In this document: positions 14,039 through 63,125 of the stretch, one piece after another | Position numbering within the stretch: the first letter of the stretch is position 1 | Layout of the letters: each line of letters begins with the position of its first letter | IMG/VR virus record: IMGVR_UViG_3300011008_000003 | Direction: 5' to 3' (one strand) | Source of the DNA: a virus | Lineage: Duplodnaviria; Heunggongvirae; Uroviricota; Caudoviricetes | DNA length: 64,000 bases | Made by a program: the position numbers and the translations under genes | Notes under the pieces: generated by a model | Told to the model about the DNA's origin: nothing | Database searches by the model: none | Seen by the model: the letters and a program-made list of their open reading frames with translations, nothing else

Positions 14039-14608
14039 TTATAACTGGGATAACTTTATACTCTTCAGACCGTAGTCCCTCTTAAGGTTTGGATCAATGT
14101 AATCGCTAAGATAAGTACAAATAGAATAAATTATATCTACTTGGCGTTCAGTAAACATAAACTTATCATTGATTACCTTATCACACCACCACAATAACTG
14201 ATTTCCATTTTCTTCAGAAGTAGCAGCCCAATCTGTACACATTTCATAAAGGAATGTATCGTTCATTTCCGTACAATTTATTCCAGTAGACTTATAATCA
14301 CCCGCACCCCAGTATTCGCAATGATGCGGATTAGATTTAATGTGTTCCATAACTACATTATTAATTTGCTGTTTTTCTTCTTGAGTAAGCTGTCTATCTC
14401 CGCAATATCTCAGGGATTGCCTTACAAGATTATCGTATTTAAGCTTATCCAAATCATGTTTCATTACCCGCTCAATATCAACATCTTCCAATGGAATTTT
14501 TTTATTTTCGACCAGGATATTGTAAAAATATTTCACTCTATCAATATGATCTTGTATTCGTTTCCTGCAAGTAACCAACAAATTGTCATTGACACTTTCT
14601 ATAGTCAT
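14039..14608 (-). CDS. DUF5662-like HD-fold protein
   Basis: H..RV...HDLDK...H...NPHH.EYW...EM..DW pattern. Confidence 0.7.
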   Translation of the reverse strand: MTIESVNDNLLVTCRKRIQDHIDRVKYFYNILVENKKIPLEDVDIERVMKHDLDKLKYDNLVRQSLRYCGDRQLTQEEKQQINNVVMEHIKSNPHHCEYWGAGDYKSTGINCTEMNDTFLYEMCTDWAATSEENGNQLLWWCDKVINDKFMFTERQVDIIYSICTYLSDYIDPNLKRDYGLKSIKLSQL

Positions 14609-15066
14609 AACATGCCCATCAATGCACCTTCGTTTTCGATGTCTTTGACACGCTTTACCATGTCGTATGTCAAAGTATTTAATTTCTTTTCTTTATAATC
14701 TAAAATCGCCGAATAATTATCTTTGAAAAACCGTATATGGTCATTGATAAACCAATATAATTTACTCAAATGCTCCATACAAAACCAGTCGTAAAATTCA
14801 TCTTTAGTTACGCTGAACTGGAACATAAGAAAGGCTGTATTAAAATAATCGTCTGGAACATCTGTCATGAAAACTTCGGCAGTTAAATACTCTCGTTCTA
14901 CTGTCCATAAGATTCTAAAATCATTGAATTTAAATAATATACAGTTATTTACGTCATTGTTATGACTATATGAATAATCAATCCAATGTCGGTCAGCATA
15001 TTCCGGTAAGATTCTATGTAAAATACGAGACTGCCAATCGCTTAGCATTTTAATTTCATGACTCAT
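14605..15066 (-). CDS. hypothetical, paralog of 18022..18522; tail-family-like
   Basis: FNTAFLMFQF...EFYDWF vs FRNSVLMYQF...EFFAWL; ends ENEGALMGML. Confidence 0.55.
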   Translation of the reverse strand: MSHEIKMLSDWQSRILHRILPEYADRHWIDYSYSHNNDVNNCILFKFNDFRILWTVEREYLTAEVFMTDVPDDYFNTAFLMFQFSVTKDEFYDWFCMEHLSKLYWFINDHIRFFKDNYSAILDYKEKKLNTLTYDMVKRVKDIENEGALMGML

Positions 15067-15443
15067 AGATTATCAATCTCCATTTCCGTTCTGATATTTT
15101 CCAGGTAATAATTTACTTTATCAACGAATAATTCAATACTTCCGCAATCGCTAAATTTGACTTCCTTATCTTTATAATGAAAAATCGGATTATTCGACGC
15201 AAAAATATACGAATTCGCAAATTTGCTATTCGGATTTCTATAAGCTCGTTCCGGTAAATTTTTATACTTACGTCTAATATCGGTAAGTAATTTTCCTAAG
15301 AAAACAATATCTTTCGAATAAGGCGAACCGATAAAGAGTAGACGTTCCGGACTTACTTCGAGACAATTGTAACGTACTTTAGAAAATAACCGGGATTCAT
15401 ACCGGATATACGGAATATCTACTAACGGGACAAATTTTTTCAC
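15063..15443 (-). CDS. C-terminal-tail family protein
   Basis: ends RTEMEIDNL*. Confidence 0.65.
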   Translation of the reverse strand: MKKFVPLVDIPYIRYESRLFSKVRYNCLEVSPERLLFIGSPYSKDIVFLGKLLTDIRRKYKNLPERAYRNPNSKFANSYIFASNNPIFHYKDKEVKFSDCGSIELFVDKVNYYLENIRTEMEIDNL

Positions 15444-17607
15444 TTTGTCTTTTCCTGCGAAGCCGATTTAAGGCTACGTTCTGTCTTATCCTTAAGTTCT
15501 TCTACATATTTCGGATAACGCCTTTCAAAATCGTCGTCCGGTTCCCAAAGGTCATTCATATTACCGAAATCGTCACGGATGAACATGGCTATTGTATTAC
15601 GATGGTCTTCTTCCATAGACGGGCTGTCCTCTACGTTACAGCACGGAAAAGCTTCGACTTCGCCATGTACATTATTGATAAGATCCTTGAACTTGAATTC
15701 GATATTACCGTGCACATAGTTAATCTTGAAACCTGTAACCTTGAACTGCTTCTTGTTCTCCAGCATATCCTCGTACAGGTTCTTAAAACCCAAAAGACAA
15801 GTCTGGGCATATTTCATATATCTCTTACGAACCTCGGTGGCGTGCTTTTCGCAGACCATTCGCATGTCCTTTAAAATCGCTTTCTGCTTATCCGACATCT
15901 TAGCCATTCTTCTTTTTCCTTTTCTGTACGATTAACGGTTTAAATTCTTCAGGCAATATATTTTTACTGCTGAGTATTTTAAACATACCATTAAAATTTT
16001 TCAAAACACTGCTCTTGATTTCATCTAGTTTTACAGGAATAAGATGATCCAATTCACTAGGTTCAAATAATTGCGATATTTCTTGATAAACCATAATAGA
16101 ATCGCAGAGAGATTTGCATTCCCATAAATCCATAGAAAGATTAAACATCGTTAACTTTCTATAAACTGTACCGTCTGAATATGCTTTATATCCATTGTCC
16201 TTTATTACGTAATAATAATTAGTACAATTTTTATCCACCGATGTTCCATCTACGGTTTTATACCATTTGCCTGCAAAAGACTTGGTATCGTCAGGTAGAT
16301 CTGCGGACTTTTCCAGCTGTTTAAGCCGAGCTTTTAGATTGCTTACTTCTGTAGTTTTTTCAGCAAGAGATTTCTGGGCATCTGCTAATATTTTCTTAGT
16401 CTCAGCAATCTGCTTGGAAACATCGTCTATCAAAATCGATTCTTTTTTCTTCTTAGCCATATTACTTCTTCTTTGTCAACAGTTTATCCAAGTCTTCTCT
16501 AATATTCGAGTTTTTCTGTGTTTCAATACCTTCAAATTCAGAATAGACGACAGTATTCCCAGGATTTACATCTCCGCCCTGAGCTTCGTTATGTTCAAAC
16601 TCTTTTTTAAATTCTTTAAGAATTTTCTTCGCTGCTTCCAGCCTAGGAATATAGACGCCAACTTCATACCAGCCGTCATAAGTACAGACTCGTGGCTTAT
16701 TATTATCTGACATCCAACTTTTATTCCAGCTATCGTAACCCAAACGTAAATGACGCTCCATGTTATAGGTAACACGACGCCATTTCGGATGCCACAAATT
16801 CCAAATCGACGGCTTGTCAACACGGTATTCAACTACATAGAAATCCTCTTTTAAGAATTCCGTCTGAATATTTCCATCGTATGTACTAGAATTAACAGGA
16901 CATTTTCCGATTTTTACAATTCTATAGTCTGGCATTTAGAAACCGTATTCCTTTTTGTCACCTACAGGATATTTCTGACCGGTGAAATCTTCATATTCTT
17001 TCCTGACAGCTTCGAACTGCTTGATAGACTGTTTCAGGTACTTCCTGAATCGCTCTACGGAGCCAGTAGAATGAAATCTTCCACCTGGCTCGATATAGTT
17101 GCTATCTTTACCGTCGGAGGTCTTCTCGTGCACAAAATAAGGGTTTTCGTTGAGTATAATCATAGTACGACCCTTATCGGACTTGTAGATAGAAACGACA
17201 GGCCAGTAGTTAGCCGAAGCCTGGTCGATACCGTAATCCTTATAATCCCAGAAAACCTCGTCGTCTCCGATATTACCGAAAGCGCCGCGATAGTCGCGTT
17301 CCTTCTCGTTGTTATAATCGAACAGATTATCGCGAACAAGGCCGAAACCTTCGCAAATATCTTCTACCCATGCAATATTAATCGGTGTAAATGTATTCTT
17401 CATTTTCCTAAAACTCTCGTCTTCAATCCAATAATCCGGTTCAAATCCGCCGCCGCAGTCTCTTTCCTGCTTGGCTTTGTAAATTGCCTGATCCAGGCAA
17501 GGACCAGAGCAAAATGTGAAATCGTCATCTTCTCTATGATAGCCACGACTCTTGTGAAACCATTTACCGCAGCAGTTACAAATGTAATAATTCCTGATAT
17601 GACCCAT
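15440..17607 (-). other. four hypothetical genes (15440-15907, 15900-16460, 16462-16935, 16936-17607)
   Basis: Coupled ORFs; last has N-terminal CxxC...C-x3-C putative Zn site. Confidence 0.65.
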
Positions 17608-17610
17608 ATC

Positions 17611-17989: not shown

Positions 17990-18022
17990 AATATAGAAAA
18001 GGATTGACTCTTCGTCAACCCT
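17990..18022 (-). promoter_or_regulatory. composite terminator/early promoter
   Basis: AGGGTTGACGAAGAGTCAATCCTTTTCTATATT: TTGACG-17-TATATT with hairpin plus T-tract in spacer. Confidence 0.8.
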
Positions 18023-18522
18023 TAAATAGCAAGTAATTCTACTTCTGTTTGTAAATCTCTTCGCCATTGATGATATTCATACGGTATGGTGTCCATTTCG
18101 TGGTTCGGTATTCCCATTGAATTATGGATTGCATCCTTCGTAATGTACGGTTCCCACTTTTGAAAATATGGAATAAATTTCAACGTCAAGTCGATAGTTT
18201 CTTTCAGCTTGTCATTTGTGAGCCAGGCAAAAAACTCCGTATCTTTATATTCAAACTGATACATTAAAACAGAATTTCTGAAAGTCTTATGTTTGACTGC
18301 ATAATCAGGCTCAACATAGTATGCACGAATATCGATTGCGTTTCTGTCTACTCTCCACTTGAAATTAATCTCGAAACATGGTCCAAGGATTTCGACAGTA
18401 TCGCTTGCTGCAGACGGATAAACACGCATATGGCTCATATAGTAAGTATTACCATAAACAGCCATAAACGTATCTTTTATACGATGTGCAAATTCTGAAA
18501 AATCAAAATAAGACATAGACAT
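18022..18522 (-). CDS. hypothetical, paralog of 14605..15066; tail-family-like
   Basis: ends LQTEVELLAI*. Confidence 0.55.
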   Translation of the reverse strand: MSMSYFDFSEFAHRIKDTFMAVYGNTYYMSHMRVYPSAASDTVEILGPCFEINFKWRVDRNAIDIRAYYVEPDYAVKHKTFRNSVLMYQFEYKDTEFFAWLTNDKLKETIDLTLKFIPYFQKWEPYITKDAIHNSMGIPNHEMDTIPYEYHQWRRDLQTEVELLAI

Positions 18523-19637: not shown

Positions 19638-19673
19638 AATATAGCAAAAACTAGAGGACTTGTCAACCCTCTA
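19638..19673 (-). promoter_or_regulatory. composite terminator/early promoter, leaderless
   Basis: TTGACA-17-TATATT-6 nt-ATG(19631); hairpin plus TTTTT in spacer. Confidence 0.8.
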
Positions 19674-19890
19674 AATCAGAAATAGCCCCAACAGATTCGC
19701 AATAATTCAGAGTAGCGGCGTCAAAAGCTCGCATCTTAGTTCCGTTGATTTCTATTTCCGCATTTTCATCAATAAAAAATTTCCTGCCTTGCGAATCCAG
19801 TGCTGCATACAATCCCAAGTTGTAAAGAATATCAGTTATTGTAGCTTCTCTACCATAAATCGTAATTTTAACATTTGTCTTTGTAGTCAT
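19663..19890 (-). CDS. C-terminal-tail family protein
   Basis: EINGTKM...VGAISDLEG*. Confidence 0.7.
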   Translation of the reverse strand: MTTKTNVKITIYGREATITDILYNLGLYAALDSQGRKFFIDENAEIEINGTKMRAFDAATLNYCESVGAISDLEG

Positions 19891-19894
19891 ATCT

Positions 19895-20137
19895 TTATCC
19901 ATCAAGTGCATCCAGTATATTCAATGTTCTACAGGACTGAATAAAAGCGTTCACATCGCCTTTGTTATCCATCCTGTAATCTATACCTTCCAATTCGATA
20001 ACCATATCCAGTGTAGGCAATATAATCGTATCGTCACACTCGATATAAGTAATGACTTCCAAATCTTCGTAATTATTACTGCTCGTAGAAATCTTAACTA
20101 CGTTATATTCTTCACCGTCTATCTTTATCCTAGCCAT
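19895..20137 (-). CDS. C-terminal-tail family protein
   Basis: LEGIDYRM...LNILDALDG*. Confidence 0.7.
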   Translation of the reverse strand: MARIKIDGEEYNVVKISTSSNNYEDLEVITYIECDDTIILPTLDMVIELEGIDYRMDNKGDVNAFIQSCRTLNILDALDG

Positions 20138-20405
20138 TTAAATTATCCAATGCAAGTTCTGTCATAATATTATTATAAAATAAATCTAATTCGCCGGATT
20201 TCTTAAAATCATACATTTTACCGTTATATTTGACATACCGAATATACATCGGGCTAAGCGAATAACGATTTAATGTCGTTGTTCCAGACTTCGATGCCCA
20301 TAAATATACACCATATATCCTATATTCGTTTTTCCAGGGCTCACAAGAACGTACATAGTAAGTATGGTTTTTTCCGTCTATTTTAAACCTTACCGATGTA
20401 CTCAT
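20130..20405 (-). CDS. C-terminal-tail family protein
   Basis: YNGKMYDF...TELALDNLNG*. Confidence 0.75.
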   Translation of the reverse strand: MSTSVRFKIDGKNHTYYVRSCEPWKNEYRIYGVYLWASKSGTTTLNRYSLSPMYIRYVKYNGKMYDFKKSGELDLFYNNIMTELALDNLNG

Positions 20406-20722
20406 AATTTTTCCAGTGCAAGCTCTGTCTCAATCGCGTTATAGAACATCTCGGCGTCATGTTCTTTCTTAAAATCATATGTTCTTCCGTTATACTTAAC
20501 TTCAGTAATGTCGCCGTAATCATTTATCCATGCTTGTCTAATTCCTGGAGGATCCGACTTTCCATCCCATATTGGTTTCGGATAAATACGTTTAACATTC
20601 AAACACACACCAAAAATTCTTTCAGGTCTGCCTCCGCCACCTTCGACAGAAGATGAACAGTCGAATACCTGATACAGTTTCGGAATCTTTTCGTATTTTG
20701 TTCTGAACATTACCTTAATCAT
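20402..20722 (-). CDS. C-terminal-tail family protein
   Basis: YNGRTYDF...TELALEKL*. Confidence 0.75.
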   Translation of the reverse strand: MIKVMFRTKYEKIPKLYQVFDCSSSVEGGGGRPERIFGVCLNVKRIYPKPIWDGKSDPPGIRQAWINDYGDITEVKYNGRTYDFKKEHDAEMFYNAIETELALEKL

Positions 20723-21066
20723 AAACACTCCAAAGCCAAATCAGTCGAAAGTTTCTGATACAGGACTTCAACTTCTGTCTCATTGCACATATTGTATTGC
20801 TTGCCCTGATAGATAAGCTTATTTGCCGGCATTCCTACGCAGACCCAAATATCTTCAATCAACGGCTGAATTATTGTATTACATGTTCCCCAGACTTTTT
20901 CTGATTTTTTATGAGATGGCGGCGGAGTAAATTTTGTCTTAACCAATGCTCTAACCTTTAAGTTAACTCCTTCCAAAACATCTCTTTGTGCAGTAAATGA
21001 AAAACGTCTAATCGTATTACAGCGTAAAACTTGATAATCAGCATGATTTATTGTTACTCGTATCAT
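20719..21066 (-). CDS. C-terminal-tail family protein
   Basis: YQGKQYNM...TDLALECL*. Confidence 0.75.
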   Translation of the reverse strand: MIRVTINHADYQVLRCNTIRRFSFTAQRDVLEGVNLKVRALVKTKFTPPPSHKKSEKVWGTCNTIIQPLIEDIWVCVGMPANKLIYQGKQYNMCNETEVEVLYQKLSTDLALECL

Positions 21067-21335
21067 TTCAAATCCTCCAATGCGACTAATGTATTGAATG
21101 TCTGAATAAACGCATCAACGTCATAGGCAGAATCCATATGGTAAACCTTTCCGTTCATTTCTATCTTTTGACTCGGGGTAATTACAATAAAACCAAATGT
21201 CCCACGTTTGGTAGCATAAACTATAGAATTAATTTTGTTTGACGGACAATTTTCAATATCAGAGAAAAAACTTTCATCCGACATATTAATACTTTTAGCA
21301 TTATATACTATATCATAAATTTTAATCGGTATCAT
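21063..21335 (-). CDS. C-terminal-tail family protein
   Basis: MNGKVYHM...TLVALEDLK*. Confidence 0.75.
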   Translation of the reverse strand: MIPIKIYDIVYNAKSINMSDESFFSDIENCPSNKINSIVYATKRGTFGFIVITPSQKIEMNGKVYHMDSAYDVDAFIQTFNTLVALEDLK

Positions 21336-21592
21336 ATCTGGTCCAACAAGTACAAAAGTTTACAATGTTCTTCAAATTTAATATTATCCCATTCATCGGC
21401 TATATTATATTCGACATTATCCATTTTTATAACGGATTTTTCAATGCCAAGCAAATGAGTAGAGTCAGCTGTTTCGCTCACTTTATAAACTATGCCTGTT
21501 ACATGCTTTCCGTTAAACGACTTAAGCAATTTCGTAACATAGACAGTTCTCCAGAAGTTATCCTTATTCCGTTTCAGTTCCATTTTAATCAT
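21332..21592 (-). CDS. C-terminal-tail family protein
   Basis: MDNVEYNI...LYLLDQI*. Confidence 0.7.
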   Translation of the reverse strand: MIKMELKRNKDNFWRTVYVTKLLKSFNGKHVTGIVYKVSETADSTHLLGIEKSVIKMDNVEYNIADEWDNIKFEEHCKLLYLLDQI

Positions 21593-21825
21593 AGACTATC
21601 CAGTGCCTGTACTGTCAAAAACGTGTTTTCAAACATCTCATTTTCTGCGATATTAGCGACTCTGAACTTATAACCGTTAAATTCTACACAAGAATACTCA
21701 TTGAAACAATAAATAGAATCATCATACAGCAATACTCCGTCAACAGACTTACTGTTGAACCCTTTCAGTATCATCTTTACAAACATAAAGACTCCATCGA
21801 TTTTCATAGAGTAGAACTTATTCAT
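21589..21825 (-). CDS. C-terminal-tail family protein
   Basis: FNGYKFRV...TVQALDSL*. Confidence 0.75.
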   Translation of the reverse strand: MNKFYSMKIDGVFMFVKMILKGFNSKSVDGVLLYDDSIYCFNEYSCVEFNGYKFRVANIAENEMFENTFLTVQALDSL

Positions 21826-22097
21826 CCCGCCAACTCCTCAATCGACTGAATTGTATCAAATGCCTGTTGAAGTTCTTCCTCGTCGGCAGGCATTTCAACA
21901 CCGTTAATCTTTACTTTATAAACGCCCCGTAAAGAAATCTTTGTTTCTTGTCCTTTATGATTCAATACGCAAATACTCGTAACCATATCATAGATACTGG
22001 TGCGAATATACCCAGTCGCCTTGACATTAAGCTCGTATGTATGCTTTTCATCATTAGACCGATAAATTATTGTCATCGGAATCGGATTAGAAATCAT
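21822..22097 (-). CDS. C-terminal-tail family protein
   Basis: INGVEM...TIQSIEELAG*. Confidence 0.75.
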   Translation of the reverse strand: MISNPIPMTIIYRSNDEKHTYELNVKATGYIRTSIYDMVTSICVLNHKGQETKISLRGVYKVKINGVEMPADEEELQQAFDTIQSIEELAG

Positions 22098-22483
22098 ATC
22101 AATGCCCTTTCTATTTCAATTTCATTAATTTGCGAATCTAGCCAAAGTCGAGACTTCATATAATCATTGCCGAATTTCTTGTACAGGTCATATGCAAGGA
22201 TTGCCATCTCAGAATGTATAGGCGCTTTAAAATACGGATCCGAAAATGTTTTCGGCATTATGCCAGTATTCCATATTTCTTCCAATACATGTGCATAAAA
22301 TTCATTACAGCGATAATCGCTAATACAAAACTGTGCGGCAGTATTTGAAAGTACGTTCATACTAGGATCGTTATACTTATACTCGTGTCCCTGTTTCTTT
22401 TCTATTTCCAGAATATGAGCATAATAAGTATATCTTGCAAGTTGAACGACATAACGGCGAAGATCTTCTGATATTGGGTCCAT
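22094..22483 (-). CDS. C-terminal-tail family protein (different N-terminal region)
   Basis: ends NEIEIERALI*; leaderless ATG 6 nt after -10. Confidence 0.6.
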   Translation of the reverse strand: MDPISEDLRRYVVQLARYTYYAHILEIEKKQGHEYKYNDPSMNVLSNTAAQFCISDYRCNEFYAHVLEEIWNTGIMPKTFSDPYFKAPIHSEMAILAYDLYKKFGNDYMKSRLWLDSQINEIEIERALI

Positions 22484-22489: not shown

Positions 22490-22523
22490 AATATAGAAAA
22501 AGGGATGACTTTCGTCAACCCTT
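22490..22523 (-). promoter_or_regulatory. composite terminator/early promoter, leaderless
   Basis: AGGGTTGACGAAAGTCATCCCTTTTTCTATATT-6 nt-ATG. Confidence 0.85.
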
Positions 22524-22866
22524 ATTTAAGTCTGTCTATTTCCTTAAGTTCATTAAACAACTGACCAAATGCGACTTGTTCATCATGGTTCCACAATCTG
22601 AACGTATGCCCGCCAAGTTCGACGACTTCTGTACGAGTTAACGGAACAAATGTCATCTGCAGTTTAGATTTACGGTTTGCACCGTATACCTTATCCTTCC
22701 GGTTTCTACTTTGAGGCGCCGGAGTATATGTAAATGGTCTTAGGAAATAAATTCCGCCAATCTGATTATAAACCCGCTGAGTAGGCCATTCAAATATTAT
22801 TTGCTTTGACCAATAGACTTTTTCAACATTATTATAAACTAGATTGTTGATTTTTACACTTACCAT
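22522..22866 (-). CDS. C-terminal-tail family protein
   Basis: LGGHTFRL...ELKEIDRLK*. Confidence 0.7.
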   Translation of the reverse strand: MVSVKINNLVYNNVEKVYWSKQIIFEWPTQRVYNQIGGIYFLRPFTYTPAPQSRNRKDKVYGANRKSKLQMTFVPLTRTEVVELGGHTFRLWNHDEQVAFGQLFNELKEIDRLK

Positions 22867-24082
22867 GGACGTCACCCTTGTAGAGTTTCTTCAGTTCACG
22901 ATTTGTCTTCATCCAGAGATCCGGACGAACACGGTCGATAGAACCGAACTTGATAGCGTTAATAGCGATACCGACATACTGCTTGCACTTATATTCCGTC
23001 GCGACTGCTACGGCTGTCTCATAACGAGTACGAGCGTCTTCGATACCGGAAATTCGAGTTACGATACCCTTGACCTTTTCCAAGGCTTCAGCATAGTAAC
23101 GCTCAACAATTCCGACGTAATTACGCATACCAGCGAGCTCTTCCGGAATGAACTTCACATAGTCAATATCGACTACGCCAGTCATACAGTCGAAATGGTC
23201 GCGGATAGACTTGTACGTAATGCAGTTAATACGTTTAAACATCTCGATATATTCATCACCCTTGACCTTCAAACGGAACTTGACCGGATAACCGTTGATA
23301 GTATGTGCAGAATTGAAAGCCAACACATAACCTTCATAGTTAAGGTCAAGCTTCTTGGCCTGGTCCACACAGTCCTTCAGATTCTGATAACCAGTAATGA
23401 CTTCCGTTACAGGTACGCCGATTTCCTTAGCCAACTTTTCAAGGTCAGCTCGCGGATATTCAAGATGGGTCGCATAGAAAGCGCTAAGCAAAGTCAATCC
23501 TTCGTAATCGTAATGAACTACGTGAACATCGTCCTTGCTCGTAGATTCGAAACAGTATGTTTCTCCGTCAATAAGCTTGCTTGCATCTACATGGTCGTCA
23601 AACCACTTCTTAGCCCAGATTGCCTGTTCAGAATAGAAGCTGCCCGGAGTCTTCAAAATCCAGTCATCCTTATACTTGAAACAGATAATCAGAGAACCGT
23701 CAATCTTGTTAGTCGCCAAAAACGAACCGGCAATGCTCGGCTCGAATTCCTTAAAACGGCTGATAATCTTACCGGTCTCGGCATAGGTTCCGTCTTCTGC
23801 AAAGATTTCAGAATAGTTAAAGAACTTGTCGAACGGATGTGCGACAATCTTACCAGTCTTCTTTTCGAAAACGATACCGCGGCACTGCATAGTCACCTTG
23901 TCCCAGTGACCTGCATAAGTCGTAGCAAGGCTATACTTGAAACCGACCAAATCTTCAGTTTCATGCTTGGTAAGCCAGCCCTTGCGGACATAGCGATAAC
24001 ACTTCTTCATGAAAAGCCAAGACTTAAACGCCTTCCACTTTTCGCCTAAATCAAATTTGATTCTGTAGTATAAGTTAATCAT
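22832..24082 (-). CDS. RNA ligase, T4 Rnl1 family
   Basis: CRGIVF...PFDKFFN, K(I)DGSL motif I, T.GSF.S, EGYV, KVK motif V. Confidence 0.88.
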   Translation of the reverse strand: MINLYYRIKFDLGEKWKAFKSWLFMKKCYRYVRKGWLTKHETEDLVGFKYSLATTYAGHWDKVTMQCRGIVFEKKTGKIVAHPFDKFFNYSEIFAEDGTYAETGKIISRFKEFEPSIAGSFLATNKIDGSLIICFKYKDDWILKTPGSFYSEQAIWAKKWFDDHVDASKLIDGETYCFESTSKDDVHVVHYDYEGLTLLSAFYATHLEYPRADLEKLAKEIGVPVTEVITGYQNLKDCVDQAKKLDLNYEGYVLAFNSAHTINGYPVKFRLKVKGDEYIEMFKRINCITYKSIRDHFDCMTGVVDIDYVKFIPEELAGMRNYVGIVERYYAEALEKVKGIVTRISGIEDARTRYETAVAVATEYKCKQYVGIAINAIKFGSIDRVRPDLWMKTNRELKKLYKGDVHGKCKNQQSSL

Positions 24083-24387
24083 AGCTCCTCTATTGCAAAT
24101 GCTTCTTCTAAAGCGTCTGCCAACATTTTTCGTTCTTCGTCTTTACTGACATTAAAAGTTAAACCGTTATAGTCTACATAATGATTCTGCATCCAACCAT
24201 GAATATTGCTTGTTCCCCAAAGGTCAATCAATTCCGGTAAATCATATTTGTTTTCTTCTGGCAACCATCGTTCGACCGATAATACTGGATGAGCCATGAA
24301 ACTATCCTTCGGAGTGAAGTCAAATCTACCGTTATGGTAAAATCCCCGAACTTTATACTTTTCATCGCTAACCTTTATCTCAATCAT
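24079..24387 (-). CDS. C-terminal-tail family protein
   Basis: YNGLTFNV...EAFAIEEL*; ATG 6 nt after TATATT (24394-24399). Confidence 0.75.
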   Translation of the reverse strand: MIEIKVSDEKYKVRGFYHNGRFDFTPKDSFMAHPVLSVERWLPEENKYDLPELIDLWGTSNIHGWMQNHYVDYNGLTFNVSKDEERKMLADALEEAFAIEEL

Positions 24388-24417: not shown

Positions 24418-24738
24418 TTAACCCTCTAAATTTTCTATCGACAATTCTGTCTTTAATGCGTCATACAGCATGGCTCGTTCCGGAGGCAAATCCATATCAT
24501 AAATTCTGCCTGCATATTCAATCGACTGCAAATCACTGTTAATAAGCTGTAACTCTTCCATACCGTAATAAGTAGTCGTTACCTGAACACCGTTTACCGT
24601 AATTACGCCGTCGACTCGCTTTGCGATAATTTCAGGAATCCATACGAAGTCATCTTTTTCTGACATGGACTCATATTGGTGCAAAAAATCCAGGACTTCA
24701 TATGTTCTTCCAGTCTTTAAAAACTTGATTACTGCCAT
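24418..24738 (-). CDS. C-terminal-tail family protein
   Basis: YAGRIYDM...TELSIENLEG*. Confidence 0.75.
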   Translation of the reverse strand: MAVIKFLKTGRTYEVLDFLHQYESMSEKDDFVWIPEIIAKRVDGVITVNGVQVTTTYYGMEELQLINSDLQSIEYAGRIYDMDLPPERAMLYDALKTELSIENLEG

Positions 24739-24740: not shown

Positions 24741-25145
24741 TTACTCCAACTGGTTAATTGCCGTTACAGTATTAAAGTTATGCTCAATTATCGACATGAT
24801 ATGCCTGACATACTTATAGAAATCAGACATTTTCGGACAACGCATATCAAATTCAGGTTCCTTAATTTCAAATCTCTCATCGCCAAAGATAAGTGTATCG
24901 TTTATGAAAATATCCATACACTCATTTACTTCCTCAGCGGTACCGGTATCTTCAGAAACCATGATACACGTATACCAGATTTCGAATAACGGAACACGGT
25001 CAATAAGGCACGGATTATAACACCAATCCGAAATATCCTCATTATCTTCGCAATCGTCGACTACGCACTTGAACTTGATATTGTACGAATTGTCGATATA
25101 TTCGTACTTATTGTCTTCGCCACGTATAACCTTAATATTCCTCAT
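24741..25145 (-). CDS. C-terminal-tail family protein
   Basis: ends TVTAINQLE*. Confidence 0.7.
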   Translation of the reverse strand: MRNIKVIRGEDNKYEYIDNSYNIKFKCVVDDCEDNEDISDWCYNPCLIDRVPLFEIWYTCIMVSEDTGTAEEVNECMDIFINDTLIFGDERFEIKEPEFDMRCPKMSDFYKYVRHIMSIIEHNFNTVTAINQLE

Positions 25146-48957: not shown

Positions 48958-50089
48958 TTATGTCTGCGGCTTATCATACCAGTAATACCCTACGTGATTT
49001 TCGTTCTCGTAATAGTTAAAACAATAGTGAGCTTTCTCAAGAGATACTGCATGGTTCATAATCTGCGTAATAGAAGAAGCAAGTTCTGAACTATTACGCT
49101 TATATTCCATGAATACGACATCCAAATCTTTCTGCATACCCGGAATTACTTCCTTGGTAAACAGTTCCTTTTCCTTTTCAGTCATTTCAGGAATATCGAT
49201 AATACGAATCCTTGGAGTATCTGACATATAATCCAAAGATACTTTTACCATTTATTCTCCCATGTGATGCAACAAGAATTCTTCGATTTCGCCAAATTCC
49301 ACTTCATGCTCCATATTGGCGAAATAAGTTACTTGAGTATCACCGTTAATGACACCTATAGTATCTTGCCCGTTCTTCAGTTCAAACAGTGTTTTCGTTT
49401 CATTCACCAAAACATTGGTAACCTGCTTAAGGTTAACAAGATTTTCAGAATTATTCTTTCGTACGATTTTAATATTCATAATTATACCAGCTTGTAAAAC
49501 AATTCGTTAATTTCTTTATACTTTAAACCTTTTTCTTCACAAACCTTCTTAAGATAATTCTGCTCTTCCTGAGCTTTCTTATCTTTCTTTGTAAGAGAAA
49601 CGAATTTGACATAGTAATCACCAGAAGTACAAGAAATAACGAAGTCAAAAACCGCGTTACATTCCTCTCCGTCTACTGCGGACTTATAGGATCCTGCCGG
49701 AACGGCATACATCCATTTACTAACGTCCTTCATAGTATCACACCACTTAGCGAACACATAAAACATTTTCTTATGTGTCGCAAACAATACATTGCCTGCA
49801 CATTTTTCAGGATGCTTTAACTTCACTGTAAGTTGTCTATGATTCATTCTAAACCTGCCAAATCAAATTCTGTTTTAAGGTCACTTAATAGGAAAAATAT
49901 ATCTTTTTTCTTCTCTCGTAGTTCATCAATTTTTTCTTCGCTCAAATTATATGCTTTAGGATTACTCAGTACGTATTCGACAAACTTTAATTGTTCTTGA
50001 AGACTGCGTATGTCAGTTCCATACGCAATCTTTAATTGTTTAGCATTAAGCTTTTTAGAATCGTATCTGAATGTTCCCATTACATACAC
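48958..50089 (-). other. four small hypothetical genes downstream of clamp loader
   Basis: ORFs 48958-49251, 49252-49479, 49482-49847, 49844-50089; no gp62/RegA motif recognised. Confidence 0.6.
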
Positions 50090-53816: not shown

Positions 53817-54209
53817 TTATAAGGTTTCCTGCGCCGTTTCGGTTTCCTCATCCAGATTTTCGATTGCTACCTCGTTCCAATAATTCTTTACATACATCTG
53901 CACTTTATTCATGAATGTCGTATACTTTTCGAGATCTTGATAATAAAATTCTTCAGATGCACCTTCATATTCCAGTTTAATATCGCCGTAAAGAAAAGTC
54001 AATTTTTCTTCATTGCTAAATGAAATAAGCTCAGGTACATTACTCAATTCATAATGATCTTTCTTATCGACCATAGAATAACCAGTAATAACTGTTTTAC
54101 TTCCTATTGTCCTAAATTCACTATCTGACGGTAAAAAATAAGAGCAATTTTTCCAAATCGCACGCTTATACATCAAACATGGAACTTCCAGAAGTTTCTT
54201 GTTCTTCAT
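53817..54209 (-). CDS. C-terminal-tail family protein
   Basis: YWNEVAIENLD plus short acidic extension. Confidence 0.65.
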   Translation of the reverse strand: MKNKKLLEVPCLMYKRAIWKNCSYFLPSDSEFRTIGSKTVITGYSMVDKKDHYELSNVPELISFSNEEKLTFLYGDIKLEYEGASEEFYYQDLEKYTTFMNKVQMYVKNYWNEVAIENLDEETETAQETL

Positions 54210-55124: not shown

Positions 55125-55571
55125 TTAACCCAACTTATCCAATGCCGCTTCGGTGTATGCCAAATTGATATACGGAGTAACCTTGTCCTTGAATTCTGTC
55201 AAGCTCAAACCGTTACTGTCAATAACGATATTCTTATAATGGAAAGAAAACGCTTCTGTCTTATAAAGGGTGACACGTTCACATGACTCATGAGTATCAG
55301 GAATTGAATATCCCATCATATCGCCATAAATCGGTTCTTCCGTGATTTTCCATCCCATTAGTTCCAAAGTCTTGTAGCCAAGACCATCTGTCCAAATCTC
55401 AAGCGGAACATCAGCGATCAACAAATCAAACTCTTCTGTACGACGATCCGACCGATACTTACGATAAACAAGTCGCGGGACATTGACTAAATCAGCCGGA
55501 CTTGCATATCGCATTCCGATAAACGCTTTCGTAAACGGATTAGTATACAAGCTGGTCTGGGAAGTACTCAT
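55125..55571 (-). CDS. C-terminal-tail family protein
   Basis: ends TEAALDKLG*. Confidence 0.7.
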   Translation of the reverse strand: MSTSQTSLYTNPFTKAFIGMRYASPADLVNVPRLVYRKYRSDRRTEEFDLLIADVPLEIWTDGLGYKTLELMGWKITEEPIYGDMMGYSIPDTHESCERVTLYKTEAFSFHYKNIVIDSNGLSLTEFKDKVTPYINLAYTEAALDKLG

Positions 55572-56080: not shown

Positions 56081-56422
56081 CTATTCCAAAGAATTTAATG
56101 CATTAATTTCCCAATAATATCGGATATACGGCCAAATAACATTAATAAAATCCGGCAAGTCCATATCTTCATTTGTAATTTTCTTATTCTCAAATACAAA
56201 TTCTATATAATCATAATCGTACAGTGCAAGCGGATTATTATCAACATAGAAATCCCCAGAATATGAACCATATATCATACAATATGTTTCTTGACCATTA
56301 TATGTTATATTAGGTTCTTTCGTACCTGGATAGAAAATCTTAAATCTTCTTTCTGTTATTTGAATACCAACCATACGGTCGTATTTATCGTTTGCTGATA
56401 CTCTTATAAACGGTTTATCCAT
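56081..56422 (-). CDS. C-terminal-tail family protein
   Basis: ends EINALNSLE*. Confidence 0.7.
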   Translation of the reverse strand: MDKPFIRVSANDKYDRMVGIQITERRFKIFYPGTKEPNITYNGQETYCMIYGSYSGDFYVDNNPLALYDYDYIEFVFENKKITNEDMDLPDFINVIWPYIRYYWEINALNSLE

Positions 56423-57089: not shown

Positions 57090-57095
57090 ATCTGT

Positions 57096-57167
57096 AATAT
57101 AGTAAAACTTAAACATCATGTAAACCCATAAAAACGGGTTGACATATATAATGGCTTTTGCTATATT
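57096..57167. promoter_or_regulatory. back-to-back divergent early promoters, both leaderless
   Basis: - strand TTTACA-17-TATATT-6-ATG(57089); + strand TTGACA-17-TATATT-6-ATG(57174). Confidence 0.85.
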
Positions 57168-57173: not shown

Positions 57174-57488
57174 ATGGTTCAAATACACAACGGAAAAATC
57201 AAGAATTTAAACATTAACCTTAAAACCGCGACTAAGGTCGTAGGAGATGTTTGCGTAGATGAAGATGTACTCGTACTTCGTTTTACTGTACCAAACCCAG
57301 ATTATGTAAGTAAGTCTGGTTTCTGGTCGAATATCGGACCTACTACACATGAAAACGTATATCTTGAACCGCATGATATTATCATAATCGGTGGAAACCG
57401 ATTTGAATGTACAGAAATTTCAGATTACGAAGCTACCCGCCTCGCAAAGAACATTACAACCCTTATCGACCTGGAGAAATTGGCATGA
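57174..57488 (+). CDS. C-terminal-tail family protein
   Basis: IGGNRF...TLIDLEKLA*. Confidence 0.7.
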   Translation: MVQIHNGKIKNLNINLKTATKVVGDVCVDEDVLVLRFTVPNPDYVSKSGFWSNIGPTTHENVYLEPHDIIIIGGNRFECTEISDYEATRLAKNITTLIDLEKLA

Positions 57489-57781
57489 GTCAAAACGTTA
57501 TGAAATTCAGCGGTGCAAACTGGTATGTGGTCAAGTCCTTTACCAAGATTCTGGGTATTAGCAAAACCAACGGAATCTATCTTGACAATAATGCCAGGGT
57601 TATCGAATCCAATCTATGCTCACTTACAAGAGATACAGCAGACTCTTCAAACGGCTTTACTTTATATTCCGATACCGACTATATTGAATATAACGGTAAG
57701 CGTTATACAAACAAAAATTTAGACAAGCTTAAGATGATCGTAGAAAACGAAAAGAATGAAGAGGCAATAGATGCACTCTGA
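57485..57781 (+). CDS. C-terminal-tail family protein
   Basis: YIEYNGKRY...NEEAIDAL*; start reassigned by ATGA overlap. Confidence 0.75.
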   Translation: MSQNVMKFSGANWYVVKSFTKILGISKTNGIYLDNNARVIESNLCSLTRDTADSSNGFTLYSDTDYIEYNGKRYTNKNLDKLKMIVENEKNEEAIDAL

Positions 57782-58091
57782 ACATAAACCTACATGCGTC
57801 GTTGTCGGGGGAGCATTCACTATGCATCATCTCGACATAGACCGACTTGATGAATTTACGGTAGATACAAAAAACCAATGTATCAAATTTCCATTCATTG
57901 ATTATAACTGGCATAAAGGTTTTTCAAAAGAAAGTTTTTTCTATATCTACCAAATTGATCAATATTCATTTTATATTAATGACCAATATGTACATTTTTT
58001 CTGTGAAAAAAATTTAGAAAAAGTATATTGGCATATATTCAACGAACTGCACGATAAAGTTGTCAAATATCAGCTTTCCGCATTGGAGTAA
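57771..58091 (+). CDS. C-terminal-tail family protein
   Basis: ends KYQLSALE*. Confidence 0.6.
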   Translation: MHSEHKPTCVVVGGAFTMHHLDIDRLDEFTVDTKNQCIKFPFIDYNWHKGFSKESFFYIYQIDQYSFYINDQYVHFFCEKNLEKVYWHIFNELHDKVVKYQLSALE

Positions 58092-58093
58092 CT

Positions 58094-58474
58094 ATGTACG
58101 ACGAATTATATGACAGCCTTTTAGCCGGTAAGTTTTTACGTCCTGTAGGCGAAGAAATAAAGCCTGAATGGCCTGTTATGGCATATACTACAAGTTATGG
58201 CGAAGATGAATTTTTCATAATCAAATCAATCGACGATGCTTCTCACAATGACAGCCTGTATTTAATCGGAATTGATTTTCGTCGCGTAAAAGATGGAAAA
58301 TTCGATTATGATATGAGTGACTATAATGTCCTTGATTATAGATCATGTCGAGGCCTGCATTATCTTGGAAAATATATCCGTTGCCGAGGTAAGTCTATGG
58401 AGGAATTCATTAACGAAATTACTCCGCTGGTCGCAAATTTCAATAACGAAATGGCTATCGAAAAATTGGATTAA
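58094..58474 (+). CDS. C-terminal-tail family protein
   Basis: YLGKY...NEMAIEKLD*. Confidence 0.75.
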   Translation: MYDELYDSLLAGKFLRPVGEEIKPEWPVMAYTTSYGEDEFFIIKSIDDASHNDSLYLIGIDFRRVKDGKFDYDMSDYNVLDYRSCRGLHYLGKYIRCRGKSMEEFINEITPLVANFNNEMAIEKLD

Positions 58475-58475
58475 T

Positions 58476-58823
58476 ATGAAAGTTCATCCTTGTGCAATAT
58501 TCATGAAAGAGCTTATGCCTACAGCTTATAATTCAATATATGAGCTGTGTAAGCATAATCCGATGCGTTGCGTTATTATCAATCAGATTTCGAAAGAAAG
58601 AACCTATATCGACGGGCATTTTGTAGACATAGATTATCATAATGATACTCTCGAAATTAATTATATCTGTGTTGATTTGGTTGCAGGCCTGTGCGGAATT
58701 CCGACTATGGACAGTCATTGTTATGTAATCTATAACGGTAAATCGTATCAAGACATGATGCAATTATACAAAGACTTTAAGAACAACGAACTTTCAAAAG
58801 AAATCGATGAGGCATTAGGATGA
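58476..58823 (+). CDS. C-terminal-tail family protein; tandem duplicate of next gene
   Basis: YNGKSY...SKEIDEALG*. Confidence 0.75.
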   Translation: MKVHPCAIFMKELMPTAYNSIYELCKHNPMRCVIINQISKERTYIDGHFVDIDYHNDTLEINYICVDLVAGLCGIPTMDSHCYVIYNGKSYQDMMQLYKDFKNNELSKEIDEALG

Positions 58824-59188
58824 ATATACAACCGATAGCACTTACAAGAGATTTTTGGTCTTTAAAAACTTTTAAAACCGCTGAATATCATACCTTTGAT
58901 GAGTTTTTACATTTTTTCGATGAAAATCCTATTAAATGTCTGTTCTTAAGCTATACACATACTGGCTGTACAAAAACTTATATACATGGTAATTTTATAG
59001 GTATTGAATACGAAGAAAAAGACGATGAACTTCTAATCTATTATGTTACAGATGAAGAACTTCCGCATGGTATGGTTCAAATGTGTTCAGTAGCCTATAA
59101 CGGTAAAACTTATATAGACCCATTGGAATTATATCATGTTTATCAAAATGATAAACTCGAACAAGAAATCGACGAGGCTTTAGAATGA
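58820..59188 (+). CDS. C-terminal-tail family protein
   Basis: YNGKTY...EQEIDEALE*. Confidence 0.75.
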   Translation: MNIQPIALTRDFWSLKTFKTAEYHTFDEFLHFFDENPIKCLFLSYTHTGCTKTYIHGNFIGIEYEEKDDELLIYYVTDEELPHGMVQMCSVAYNGKTYIDPLELYHVYQNDKLEQEIDEALE

Positions 59189-59502
59189 TTAAGCCATATG
59201 TCGAATGTATAAATGTCTGGACCGGAAAAAACGATATTTTTATATTGTCGCTAAATTCGGCGTCGGTTGACTATATGAAAAAATATCGTAAACTTGTCGG
59301 ATTCTTTAAGACAGACCCGTTGCATGCCGATTTAAAAATGCTTACTCCCTTATTCGGTTCCGTTTTTCATTGCGGAAATATCGTAATAAATTACGATACA
59401 AATAATAACAACTGGACGATTCGAAAAGAAGATGACTTTTGTAATCTAGTCGCGACATACGTAGAACAAGCAAGATTATCAAACGAGATAGATAACCTAT
59501 GA
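59185..59502 (+). CDS. C-terminal-tail family protein
   Basis: ends SNEIDNL*. Confidence 0.7.
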   Translation: MIKPYVECINVWTGKNDIFILSLNSASVDYMKKYRKLVGFFKTDPLHADLKMLTPLFGSVFHCGNIVINYDTNNNNWTIRKEDDFCNLVATYVEQARLSNEIDNL

Positions 59503-59864
59503 TGCATGTACTTGTGAAAAAACTTACCAATGAAGATATATTACTAAGAATGAAATTAAATAAATTTTCATTCTGTAATCTTGGTTTTGTATATTTGCCA
59601 TTCTATGCCGGTAGAATCCTTAAAAATTACCAGCCAGCCGTTACATATCATAATGTTTCATTTATCGACCTAGAACAAGATAAACTATATCCGCATATCT
59701 GGAATGTATATTATTATAATCCGGATAAATTTAAAGGCGTTGTAGTCTGGGAAGATAACGTTTCGTATGTTACTTTCAGAGATAAAAAATATATGGATAT
59801 GACGCAATTACATTTTGCCCTTGAAAATTTCAAAATGGAGAGAATGCTCAGTGTGCTCGACTAA
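59499..59864 (+). CDS. C-terminal-tail family protein
   Basis: FRDKKY...ERMLSVLD*. Confidence 0.7.
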   Translation: MMHVLVKKLTNEDILLRMKLNKFSFCNLGFVYLPFYAGRILKNYQPAVTYHNVSFIDLEQDKLYPHIWNVYYYNPDKFKGVVVWEDNVSYVTFRDKKYMDMTQLHFALENFKMERMLSVLD

Positions 59865-60171
59865 AATTAAATTCATGCAATTCGTCAATGACCCAAATAT
59901 CGAGATCGATAAATATCAGATTATTCATGTAGGCGTCGGCTCTCATGAATATTTCCGGTATACCGACTTGCGTTTTTGCGGTCTGACATATAAAGACGAT
60001 ACATTCTATATTTTCTGGGATTCTCCGCATGACTATTACAGCGATGCGTTTACCTGGGACGATGAGTCATTTATCGTATATCAACACACGATATATACAG
60101 ATTTAAAACAGCTTGCTTTAAAACTCACTAATGACGCAAACGAACGCGATATTGATGAAGCGCTTGGATAA
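59815..60171 (+). CDS. C-terminal-tail family protein (start uncertain)
   Basis: YQHTIY...ERDIDEALG*. Confidence 0.7.
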   Translation: MPLKISKWRECSVCSTKIKFMQFVNDPNIEIDKYQIIHVGVGSHEYFRYTDLRFCGLTYKDDTFYIFWDSPHDYYSDAFTWDDESFIVYQHTIYTDLKQLALKLTNDANERDIDEALG

Positions 60172-60203
60172 GGGTTGACACGTTCAGCCCTTTTTGCTAT
60201 ATT
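60171..60203 (+). promoter_or_regulatory. composite terminator/early promoter, leaderless
   Basis: AGGGTTGA-CACGT-TCAGCCCT-TTTTGC-TATATT-6 nt-ATG. Confidence 0.85.
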
Positions 60204-60575: not shown

Positions 60576-60577
60576 AT

Positions 60578-61326: not shown

Positions 61327-61344
61327 TTTTGCTATATTAAAGCC

Positions 61345-61815: not shown

Positions 61816-62149
61816 AATACAATATACATCGATTGAAAATCCATTATTGAAAGATATACCGGTACATGTATATCAATCATATCCGAATAAGCTTGATGGC
61901 GAATATCAAGACTATGGCCTTGCAGATATACATTACACAAGGAAAACTACGCCGGAAGGTGTATCTTATGATTTCATCAGAATTTTTATTAGTGCAAAAT
62001 TAACCGGTGATATTCCGCTGCATCTATGGAATAACAAATCATATATTGAATATGAAGGTAAGAAATATAGAACTGAGCAAGACCTATTAAAAATGCTTAT
62101 GATTATCGACAACTTAAGAGCGTTGCGAGCAATTAACCGACTTGATTAG
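61808..62149 (+). CDS. C-terminal-tail family protein
   Basis: YIEYEGKKY...LRAINRLD*; probable GTG start. Confidence 0.7.
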   Translation: MIRIQYTSIENPLLKDIPVHVYQSYPNKLDGEYQDYGLADIHYTRKTTPEGVSYDFIRIFISAKLTGDIPLHLWNNKSYIEYEGKKYRTEQDLLKMLMIIDNLRALRAINRLD

Positions 62150-62158
62150 GGGCTTGCC

Positions 62159-62449
62159 ATGAAAAATAATAATACATTAGTCTTTACATGTGGAAATCCG
62201 CCAGAGCATAGGCCAGTAGATTTCGAAGAGATTCATCGTATCTATACATTGACCGATTGTTATCATCTCAAGTTAACAAACTGCTATATGGAATGGAATC
62301 CCATCAGTCATGCCAAATGCGAATATTTTTACATGCAGCCGAATGACTATATTATCTACAAGAAAAAACGATATACGTACGACGACATGCCAAAACTTAT
62401 AATGTTACTCGAAAACGAAAATACCATGAAGGTAATAGAGCGTTTATGA
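62159..62449 (+). CDS. C-terminal-tail family protein
   Basis: YIIYKKKRY...MKVIERL*. Confidence 0.7.
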   Translation: MKNNNTLVFTCGNPPEHRPVDFEEIHRIYTLTDCYHLKLTNCYMEWNPISHAKCEYFYMQPNDYIIYKKKRYTYDDMPKLIMLLENENTMKVIERL

Positions 62450-62739
62450 AAAATCATGTAGTTTACGGTGCTGGCCATGGTTATACTCGGGCCGATTTCG
62501 ATGAAATCGTACTTATACGGTATGATGAAACAATAAGACCAGAATATTCTGTTCAATTTAAAAATATTAAATTTGAATGCGATGAAAATACTTATGCGTT
62601 TTGGACTGCCTATTTATGCAATATTACTGACTGCATAACCTATAAAGGCAAATTTTACAGTTTCTTCGAAATGCCAAATCTCAGTATGCTCATCGAACAG
62701 GAAAAAACCAAAATAGCCATCGACAACCTGGAGGGATAA
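62446..62739 (+). CDS. C-terminal-tail family protein
   Basis: YKGKFY...KIAIDNLEG*. Confidence 0.75.
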   Translation: MKNHVVYGAGHGYTRADFDEIVLIRYDETIRPEYSVQFKNIKFECDENTYAFWTAYLCNITDCITYKGKFYSFFEMPNLSMLIEQEKTKIAIDNLEG

Positions 62740-63125
62740 TGACAGATAGAGAACACGAACATTGGAAGGATATTCAAAGCAGTAGTCATAAGGAAAAATT
62801 GGAATATCTATTAAGCCTGACCAAACCCGGCAAGAACTATTTTATTACCCCTCATTATCATACGTCTCCCATTAAAGAATTTATAGATATTACCGAACTT
62901 GATTTAGAAAGACATGCCGTACAGTTTAAGTATATCCACGAAGTTTTCAACGATAAATGGGACGGGCTTAGGTATACTACCGATTACGAGTTTATTATCT
63001 GGAACGGGAAAATGTACAGGGGATTTATCGTAACCAACGTATGTATAGACGACCCAGAAGAATTCAAACGGCTTGCATTCGATTTTCACAAATACCAGAT
63101 AGAAAAGTCTTTGGCGGTTCTATAA
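62739..63125 (+). CDS. C-terminal-tail family protein
   Basis: WNGKMY...EKSLAVL*. Confidence 0.7.
   Translation: MTDREHEHWKDIQSSSHKEKLEYLLSLTKPGKNYFITPHYHTSPIKEFIDITELDLERHAVQFKYIHEVFNDKWDGLRYTTDYEFIIWNGKMYRGFIVTNVCIDDPEEFKRLAFDFHKYQIEKSLAVL

Follow-up and report, generated by a model that had tools for sequence, protein, structure and literature searches.

A C-terminal helix shared by many small proteins of a rumen jumbo phage, and its possible role as a docking handle

The window, a 64,000-nucleotide stretch of an uncultured rumen jumbo phage with 128 curated genes, encodes a large set of small proteins whose divergent heads are followed by one tail, an amphipathic C-terminal helix of about 20 residues closing T/L-x-x-A-[L/I]-[E/D]-x-L-(0-3)-stop. 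The helix has the look of a common handle, carried by about one-seventh of the genes in this phage and its relatives. Our analysis gives even odds (about 0.5) to the reading that variable binding domains dock through this one tail. Genome-wide figures are taken from a 411-kb relative and not from the window's own genome. No description of a shared phage C-terminal tail, or of this phage group, was found in the literature covered (mostly open-access papers).

The shared tail

On a looser reading of the motif, 43 small tail genes lie within 14605-63125, close to the 41 or so of the first-pass annotation, with two more at 6 and 11 kb (Table 1). Three of the 43 are marginal (14605-15066, 18022-18522, and 22094-22483), and two carry 9-11 residues beyond the helix (45945-46331 and 53817-54209). 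The strict pattern [ASE][IL][DEN]xL(0-2)-stop ends 21 of the 93 genes at 14.6-63.1 kb, far above composition shuffles (mean 0.14, maximum 3 in 2,000 shuffles), and none of the 30 genes at 2-12 kb. A profile trained on the left array placed 19 of 115 held-out C-termini, mostly of right-array genes, above the 99th percentile of internal windows; reverse training placed 10 of 105. The window-trained profile scored above 5 bits at 58 of the 680 C-termini of the 411-kb relative and in 0.24% of internal windows, at 2/726 C-termini of other T4-like loci, and at 0/748 of other phage loci (2/1,474 for other phages pooled). The tail is present on 89 of 647 ORFs (14%) of the near-complete relative, and orthologs from a lineage of 46% GC carry it too. 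Its reported absence from enzymes holds for those tested (-16 to -22 bits), while its reported absence from 2-12 kb does not, given the members at 5989-6333 and 11447-11926. The (Y/F)xGKxY hairpin attributed to many members occurs in the strict form (Y/F)xG[KR]x(Y/F) in only 10, and as a looser hairpin in about 23.

Invariance is greatest at the very end of the tail (L 93%, L/I 90%, E/D 68%), in a heptad-like spacing with Leu at 0, L/I at -3, T/L at -7, and Asn at -10 (38%). Hydrophobic phase differs by about 165 degrees between the two helix halves, and the net charge of the last 12 residues averages -1.2. Residues after the last Leu vary and are often acidic (LE 12, LD 11; n=131), and some tails continue 6-11 residues past the helix; a free C-terminus is not obligatory.

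Table 1. Tail genes, promoters and neighbouring features in the window
Position	Strand	Feature	Remark
5989..6333	-	Weak-tail type A member (hairpin + helix), outside 14.6-63.1 kb	Ortholog in 411-kb relative
11447..11926	-	Type A member outside 14.6-63.1 kb	19 bits on tail profile
14605..15066	-	Type E head, marginal tail	Paralog of 18022-18522
15063..15443	-	Type B member, strong tail	
18022..18522	-	Type E head, marginal tail	
19663..22097	-	Left tandem array, nine overlapping type A genes	
19663-19902, 19895-20137, 20130-20405, 20402-20722, 20719-21066	-	Left array genes 1-5	
21063-21335, 21332-21592, 21589-21825, 21822-22097	-	Left array genes 6-9	
20400..20430	-	Tail-coding DNA of 20402-20722	~20-nt block in common with 20130-20405 tail
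22094..22483	-	Member with degenerate tail, then extra residues	
-35 at 22518-22513	-	Sigma-70-type promoter of 22094-22483	6 nt between -10 and ATG
22522..22866	-	Type A member	
24079..24387	-	Type A member with own promoter	
24418..24738	-	Type A member	
24741..25145	-	Member with longer helix	
TTGACA 25180-25175	-	Promoter of 24741-25145	TATATT 6 nt upstream of ATG
45266-45958		Probably third type D paralog	Degenerate extended tail
45945..46331	-	Member, tail then 9 residues	13 bits, near-terminal
46328-46918, 46918-47505	-	Two type D paralogs, 195-196 aa	Strong tails
49844..50080	-	78-aa member	Directly 3' of clamp-loader gene
51327-52100		Clamp gene	
53817..54209	-	Type B member, tail then 11 residues	26 bits; extension kept in ortholog L016
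54788..55123	-	Type C member	
55125..55571	-	Type B member	
56081..56422	-	Type B member	
56425-56754, 56754-57119	-	Two type C members	First modelled
57139..57167	+	Sigma-70-type promoter TTGACA-17-TATATT	6 nt upstream of ATG at 57174; mRNA probably leaderless
57174..60171	+	Right array, first operon, nine members	Types A and B mixed
57174-57488, 57485-57781, 57771-58091, 58094-58474, 58476-58823	+	First-operon genes 1-5	
58820-59188, 59185-59502, 59499-59864, ~59851-60171	+	First-operon genes 6-9	
60210-60575, 60578-60970, 60970-61326	+	Three members behind a promoter	TTGACA 60175-60180
~61808-62149, 62159-62449, 62446-62739, 62739-63125	+	Four members, mostly type A	

Heads, promoters and selection

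The heads are not one family: those of 131 tail proteins fall into 104 clusters, with at least five profile groups that do not overlap one another, and models support several unrelated predicted folds under one tail. Structures were predicted for two members, one of type A and one of type C. The type A model (20402-20722) is PH-like, with a continuous, confident tail helix (H87-105); nearly all of its top 50 structural matches are PH-like, all with Z below 8 (best match Z 6.2, rmsd 3.5, 73 aligned). The type C model (56425-56754) is an alpha/beta meander with an equally continuous and confident tail helix at residues 89-108, and its best structural matches stop near residue 90, ahead of the tail. 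Alignment of the A and C profiles is confined to 19 tail columns. A widespread YdcK-type beta-helix protein also ends in the tail here (19.7 bits); five of six YdcK homologs from cultured phages do not, and the sixth scores 5.9 bits, so helical ends can mimic the tail by chance. The proposal that the tail sits on several unrelated bodies is upheld, with two predicted folds that have no head-profile similarity. As a portable tag rather than a paralog signature, it stands only in part, since about half of the members are true paralogs in which the helix is partly structural; heads of type A, the largest group, are alignable, contrary to the earlier description of barely alignable N-terminal parts. 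Some heads contain a hypervariable loop.

Type A heads share with bacterial PH-like domains (PMC2817789) a modelled beta sandwich with a C-terminal closing helix, but Z is only 4-6, Pfam gives no match, there are fewer strands, and the likeness covers only part of the tail-bearing set. The type A helix, as modelled, resembles the helix that ordinarily closes a PH-like fold, a counter-point to the handle, and its first turns are probably structural. Searches of 139 members against Pfam, PHROGs, and NCBIfam gave single-member matches only, no family fitting the set; none matched the bacterial PH Pfam family at E 0.01, and no head was a recognisable enzyme. Two of the family matches are genuine, one for the YdcK beta-helix protein and one for a kinase-like ORF (tail 3.5 bits), the latter probably a false positive as a member. 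Foldseek against viral models returned nothing at E <0.001, an Atlas shape search nothing at or above TM 0.5 by query, ESM Atlas sequence searches nothing usable, and a type A member had no match in cultured phages. Among 1.84 billion representatives, a profile search picked up the same phage clade and unrelated repeat proteins in which only the hairpin matched.

The tail genes are of early type. The sigma-70-type early promoters proposed ahead of array members were found, as TTGACA-17 nt-TATATT ending 6 nt before the ATG, and the late TATAAATA promoter of the relative precedes 1 of 86 tail genes versus 76 of 594 others (p=0.0004). The left array is spanned by contigs of metatranscriptome libraries made from sheep and cattle gut, although such contigs cannot show transcription, its level, or start sites.

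The tail is selected at the protein level. pN is 0.036 in tails versus 0.058 in heads at equal pS; 28 of 35 genes have their lower value in the tail (p=0.0004), a gap not seen in non-family genes. Constraint on the tail is only modestly above that on the head (dN/dS 0.14-0.19 versus 0.25-0.30; non-family genes, 0.12). That the motif is a by-product of DNA, mirroring the translation start signals (ribosome-binding site and start codon) of the gene that follows, is largely refuted. GAG is indeed over-used for Glu at -2 (21/30 in the relative against a background of 12%), and some tail ends overlap the -35 of the next promoter, but neither a nearby ATG (p 0.49 and 0.81) nor an SD-like word (p 0.09 and 0.59) is in excess, coupled and uncoupled genes have equal tail scores, and all six Leu codons are used in tails.

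Docking and its alternatives

As a docking handle, the first half of the helix (-19 to -9 from the last Leu) would pack on the protein's own domain, and the second half (T/L-x-x-A-[L/I]-[E/D]-x-L) would present a second hydrophobic stripe, on another face, that fits a groove of one common partner. The heads would be small, fast-evolving binding domains of several folds, produced from host-polymerase promoters, engaging many different targets and delivering them to it, as a library of adaptors with variable heads and a constant tail. Binding, a single partner, and host targets are what we infer here, and the anti-defence role put forward in the first-pass annotation stays a suggestion. The likeliest class of partner is an AAA+ remodeller or protease, either a host Clp ATPase or the phage's own MoxR-vWA pair acting with its ClpP, although the probability of this identity is low overall. 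The relative encodes ClpP, GroEL, a MoxR-like AAA protein, and a DUF2201 protein, the last two within a tail-rich region; around the MoxR homolog of one unrelated phage, 0/33 genes are tail genes, so there is no simple coupling of MoxR with the tail. A BRCT partner was considered and is not supported: the BRCT-like ORF beside the relative's type C array is faint (E 0.02-0.05), its family alignment is patterned differently, no structure matched, and its homolog sits in a phage region with 1/58 tail-scoring ORFs.

Poxvirus ankyrin/PRANC (F-box) proteins also combine a variable head, there of one repeat family, with a constant C-terminal docking element, and ESCRT-III MIM1 helices have a similar spacing (L-x-x-x-L-x-x-L-end); these are eukaryotic systems, unlike the phage set, and no MIT domain scored above cut-off in the relative. 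SspB is tethered to ClpX by its tail. Another Clp protease adaptor is Gp53 of phage SPO1 (PMC6873191). The proposed logic resembles that of both adaptors in its target-binding body, short AAA+-docking part, and early host-takeover timing; each adaptor is a single protein, in contrast to a library of many folds. A broader possibility, offered tentatively, is that T4-like jumbo phages use genome-wide address tags, a lineage-specific helix plugging binders of many folds (one-seventh of the genome) into a single hub, e.g., an AAA+/protease, which would act on many host proteins to remove or remodel them, with the tag DNA as shuffling joint.

A somewhat doubtful alternative is that hairpin and helix are a stabilising cap from an ancestral gene, with no common partner and heads that act alone; tail DNA, being convenient for joining genes in frame, would account for its spread. 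Type A members are paralogous with a PH-like closing helix, hairpin-like segments precede the helix in types B and C too, the module matches designed beta-beta-alpha mini-folds in sequence (E 0.005-0.03), a natural crossover falls inside a tail, and arrays expanded independently in two lineages. The mini-fold match, however, ends before the last ~9 residues of the module, where the most invariant positions lie; the same residues are kept on the meander and the beta-helix, folds unable to pack the helix alike, and synonymous tail sites vary as freely as head sites. A C-terminal degron making early proteins short-lived is quite improbable: terminal position, early-type promoters, and the relative's ClpP would suit it, but the last residues are variable and often acidic, and some tails have 6-11 residue extensions. 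Acidic ends disfavour ssrA- or Tsp-type recognition; degrons of that type end in small non-polar residues with a free carboxylate, unlike these tails.

Unlikely, too, is self-association, in which tails would bundle into mixed assemblies or condensates as microcompartment encapsulation peptides do. The short heptad-like pattern fits, and bacterial PH domains are known to assemble into rings, one of which C-terminal helices enlarge (PMC2817789), but the exposed stripe spans just two heptads and is net acidic, which makes it weak for self-pairing; a predicted complex between one type A and one type C member scored 0.01 for tail-to-tail pairing, a value uninformative in either direction. Encapsulation peptides are similar terminal amphipathic helices of about 18 residues, but they occur on enzymes, with BMC shell genes, whereas the heads here are not recognisable enzymes; the shell family PF00936 gave nothing above cut-off in the relative. 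Docking on the phage sliding clamp, by analogy with T4, is very improbable. The clamp gene lies in the window, and the unrelated T4 proteins gp43, gp33, and gp55 do bear one short, freely interchangeable acidic-hydrophobic C-terminal motif (PMC2988020), but that motif has aromatic residues and a flexible linker and serves three proteins rather than ~90. Aromatic residues are absent from the tail, which both models show as an unbroken helix, not an epitope on a linker, and it is missing from ligase, RNase H, and other DNA enzymes. What makes the clamp an unlikely partner is the C-terminus of the relative's polymerase, a different, RB69-like aromatic motif (...TMFEFFS, -27.5 bits on the tail profile), and on this point the T4 analogy of the first-pass annotation fails.

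Were the docking handle correct, its value would lie in the fact that most jumbo-phage genes are small orphans: ~90 with one handle in one genome reduce to the single question of what binds the helix, and identifying a partner would assign a seventh of the genome to a functional class. A protease or remodeller in that role would make the set a bacterial-virus counterpart of poxvirus adaptor libraries, and the tag offers a practical way of singling out candidate host-takeover genes. Quick tests are limited by an uncultured host. A Fibrobacteraceae-related host is only weakly indicated by sequence, the GroEL closest to the relative's coming from a Fibrobacteraceae genome; sigma-factor searches did not identify the host.

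Recombination in tail DNA

The tail DNA also acts as a recombination joint, a point missed in the earlier annotation. Because tail DNA is alike, neighbouring genes would recombine within tails, and arrays would therefore grow, shrink, and swap heads with the frame intact. Cassettes of the PeSL type in T4-type hyperplastic regions, which are non-coding promoter/stem-loop units, are likewise repeats that serve as recombination points among small, non-essential early genes (PMC2839356); the joint here, unlike these, is coding and selected as a peptide. One natural tail-to-tail in-frame deletion was found: in natural strains, a crossover inside the tail DNA of 20402-20722 has removed the 20130-20405 gene, and this coding joint shows how such arrays expand and contract.

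A shared C-terminal helix

Our analysis confirms a common C-terminal tail on many small early proteins of this phage. The strict pattern reported in the first-pass annotation occurs in 21 of the 93 genes of its interval (14605-63125; shuffles give a mean of 0.14) and in 0 of 30 genes at 2-12 kb (128 curated window genes in all). That motif is present but was drawn too short; the actual element, an amphipathic helix, spans about 20 residues, and its hydrophobic positions are -16, -13/-12, -9, -7, -4/-3, and 0 (the last Leu). Asn occupies -10 in 38% of tails, Ala -4 in 42%, Leu or Ile -3 in 90%, Glu or Asp -2 in 68%, and Leu 0 in 93%. The window holds 45 members, including two beyond that interval and three marginal ones.

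Genome-wide figures are based on a 98%-complete 411-kb relative (G001), which was read whole and whose ligase is 75% identical to that of the window. A window-trained tail profile exceeds 5 bits at 58 of 680 G001 C-termini versus 0.24% of internal windows; among the C-termini from other phages the counts are 0/748 and 2/726. A profile built on one array retrieves the other, and 89 of 647 G001 ORFs (14%) reach the 4-bit cut-off of a retrained profile. Orthologs from a 46%-GC lineage retain the tail; it was not found in searches beyond the clade of the window phage and G001, and literature searches found no description of such a shared tail. The tail is real and striking and has apparently gone undescribed; its mechanism we infer.

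Comparison with orthologs gives a pN of 0.036 for the final 21 codons and 0.058 for the variable heads, with pS 0.20 for both; the lower tail value is seen in 28 of 35 genes (p=0.0004), and non-family genes show no difference. Evolution is faster in heads than in other genes (dN/dS 0.25-0.30 versus 0.12), and a hypervariable loop lies immediately ahead of the hairpin in two heads examined. A nearby ATG or SD-like word downstream is no commoner in tail genes than in other small genes, tails score alike with and without coupling to the next gene, and all six Leu codons are used at the last Leu. The last one to three residues are shaped by DNA (GAG occurs in excess, and some of the ends run into the promoter that follows); overlap of L-E-G-stop ends with the -35 region may explain their variability.

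Heads, folds, and candidate partners

With the last 45 residues trimmed, just four pairs of window members can be aligned. Iterated profiles nevertheless join some two dozen proteins of the window and G001 as type A, which are therefore true paralogs; types B to E are separate, non-overlapping groups, and 76 of the 131 pooled members fall in no group. A type A member is predicted (pLDDT 88) to form a beta sandwich that the helix closes, and nearly all top structure matches are PH-like domains, with modest Z (best 6.2). A type C member is predicted as an alpha/beta meander (pLDDT 92) whose best matches stop near residue 90 and do not take in the tail helix (89-108); the tail is the sole part in which type A and type C profiles align. 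A YdcK-type left-handed beta-helix protein of G001 also ends with the tail (19.7 bits), its stop directly after the family domain; among six YdcK homologs from cultured phages, five are negative and one scores 5.9. The folds of these three, two of them predicted, differ, which goes against one fold for all members, the case that would have refuted the earlier annotation; that annotation took the heads as barely alignable, which does not hold for type A.

The hydrophobic faces of the two helix halves lie about 165 degrees apart, and invariance is highest at the very end, past a stretch resembling beta-beta-alpha mini-folds; on these grounds the first half would anchor on the head and the second would dock on a partner. 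We give a single common docking partner a probability of about 0.5. Judging from the model, the first half is probably structural in type A; that the whole tail is a purely structural module, spread via recombination, is conceivable but doubtful, and self-association of tails is quite improbable. The free carboxylate is dispensable, tails followed by 6-11 residues being retained, and acidic ends are common; both observations argue against a classic degron.

The leading candidate class for the common partner is an AAA+ protein or protease, although at a low overall probability. Candidates encoded by G001 are ClpP, GroEL, an M16 peptidase, and, in a tail-rich region, a MoxR-like AAA together with a DUF2201 protein (a pair whose synteny extends to a 46%-GC relative); a Clp ATPase of the host is another. 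SPO1 Gp53 is a known example of a phage adaptor of ClpC (PMC6873191). The clamp, suggested previously by analogy with the T4 clamp-binding C-terminal motif (PMC2988020), is an unlikely partner since the G001 polymerase ends in an aromatic motif that differs from the tail. A faint BRCT score of the ORF upstream of the type C array was not confirmed; homologs of this ORF occur in unrelated phages.

Poxvirus F-box proteins combine a variable head with a constant C-terminal docking piece, a design also known from T4 clamp tails and protease adaptors and proposed for the tail proteins; the tail set nevertheless fails the defining tests run against the T4 clamp tails.

Promoters, arrays, and genome context

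Operons begin at TTGACA-17-TATATT, and the ATG follows the -10 box by 6 nt, in agreement with the sigma-70-type promoters noted earlier. The short gap excludes an SD and suggests, from sequence, that the first genes of early operons probably have leaderless mRNAs. Only 1 of 86 G001 tail genes has a late promoter versus 76 of 594 others (p=0.0004); tail genes thus avoid it.

The left-array gene at 20130-20405 is missing in strains L114-L116 and L202, where the crossover lies within a block common to two adjacent tails and leaves an intact fusion; tail DNA is a recombination joint, and these deletions may be one ancestral event. G001 has three or four left-array members yet long arrays of its own, so the arrays expanded separately in the two phages. 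Single-gene presence also differs among strains, since contigs of public runs skip individual window genes.

Coordinates of features in the window, G001, and related strains
Sequence	Position	Strand	Feature
Window	12422-12915; 14031-14611		Exactly these genes skipped in contigs
Window	18522-19631; 22094-22483; 24079-24387; 24741-25145; 55794-56042	-	TATATT 6-7 nt upstream of ATG; SD would not fit
Window	57174; 60210; 61345	+	Same spacing; SD excluded
Window	18522-19631	-	Split NAD-dependent ligase, adenylation and OB part
G001	91902-92717		Separate gene, BRCT-bearing half of ligase
Window	19663-19675; 24418-24430		L-E-G-stop tails overlapping next -35 region
G001	143527-143991		As preceding
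Window	25214-26632; 33303-34535; 34556-35347; 41594-43957; 43998-44801; 52236-53786		N-termini reminiscent of T4 capsid-targeting sequence
Window	54166-54723	-	Phage-encoded rhomboid protease within right array (Pfam E 9e-20)
Window	63370-63490		Non-coding, after right array; ~55-nt tandem copies x2, inverted T/A-rich repeats
Window	63622-64000	-	Partial sigma-70 region 4 gene, higher GC
G001	2900-3727		275-aa sigma-70-like factor
G001	83044-83787		ClpP
G001	85625-88910		DNA polymerase B, two ORFs; RB69-like clamp-binding motif at end of second
G001	336081-337709		GroEL
G001	351821-352195	-	Conserved 124-aa ORF, unnamed family, many invariant residues, upstream of type C array
G001	392100-395568		MoxR-like AAA and DUF2201 protein
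L203/L204 (more distant strain)	1-4900		Left array kept; internal RNA ligase gene absent, different gene inserted

The window is a section of a T4-like jumbo phage genome and encodes a gp45-like clamp, clamp loader, NAD ligase, and RNA ligase; contigs of near-identical relatives reach 411-428 kb, and most of the runs that match are from the gut of sheep and cattle. The GroEL of a relative best matches a Fibrobacteraceae genome (64%; next 61%), a weak hint of the host. The late promoter TATAAATA lies ahead of most window genes with capsid-targeting-like N-termini, and the repeats after the right array are a possible origin or genome-end feature.
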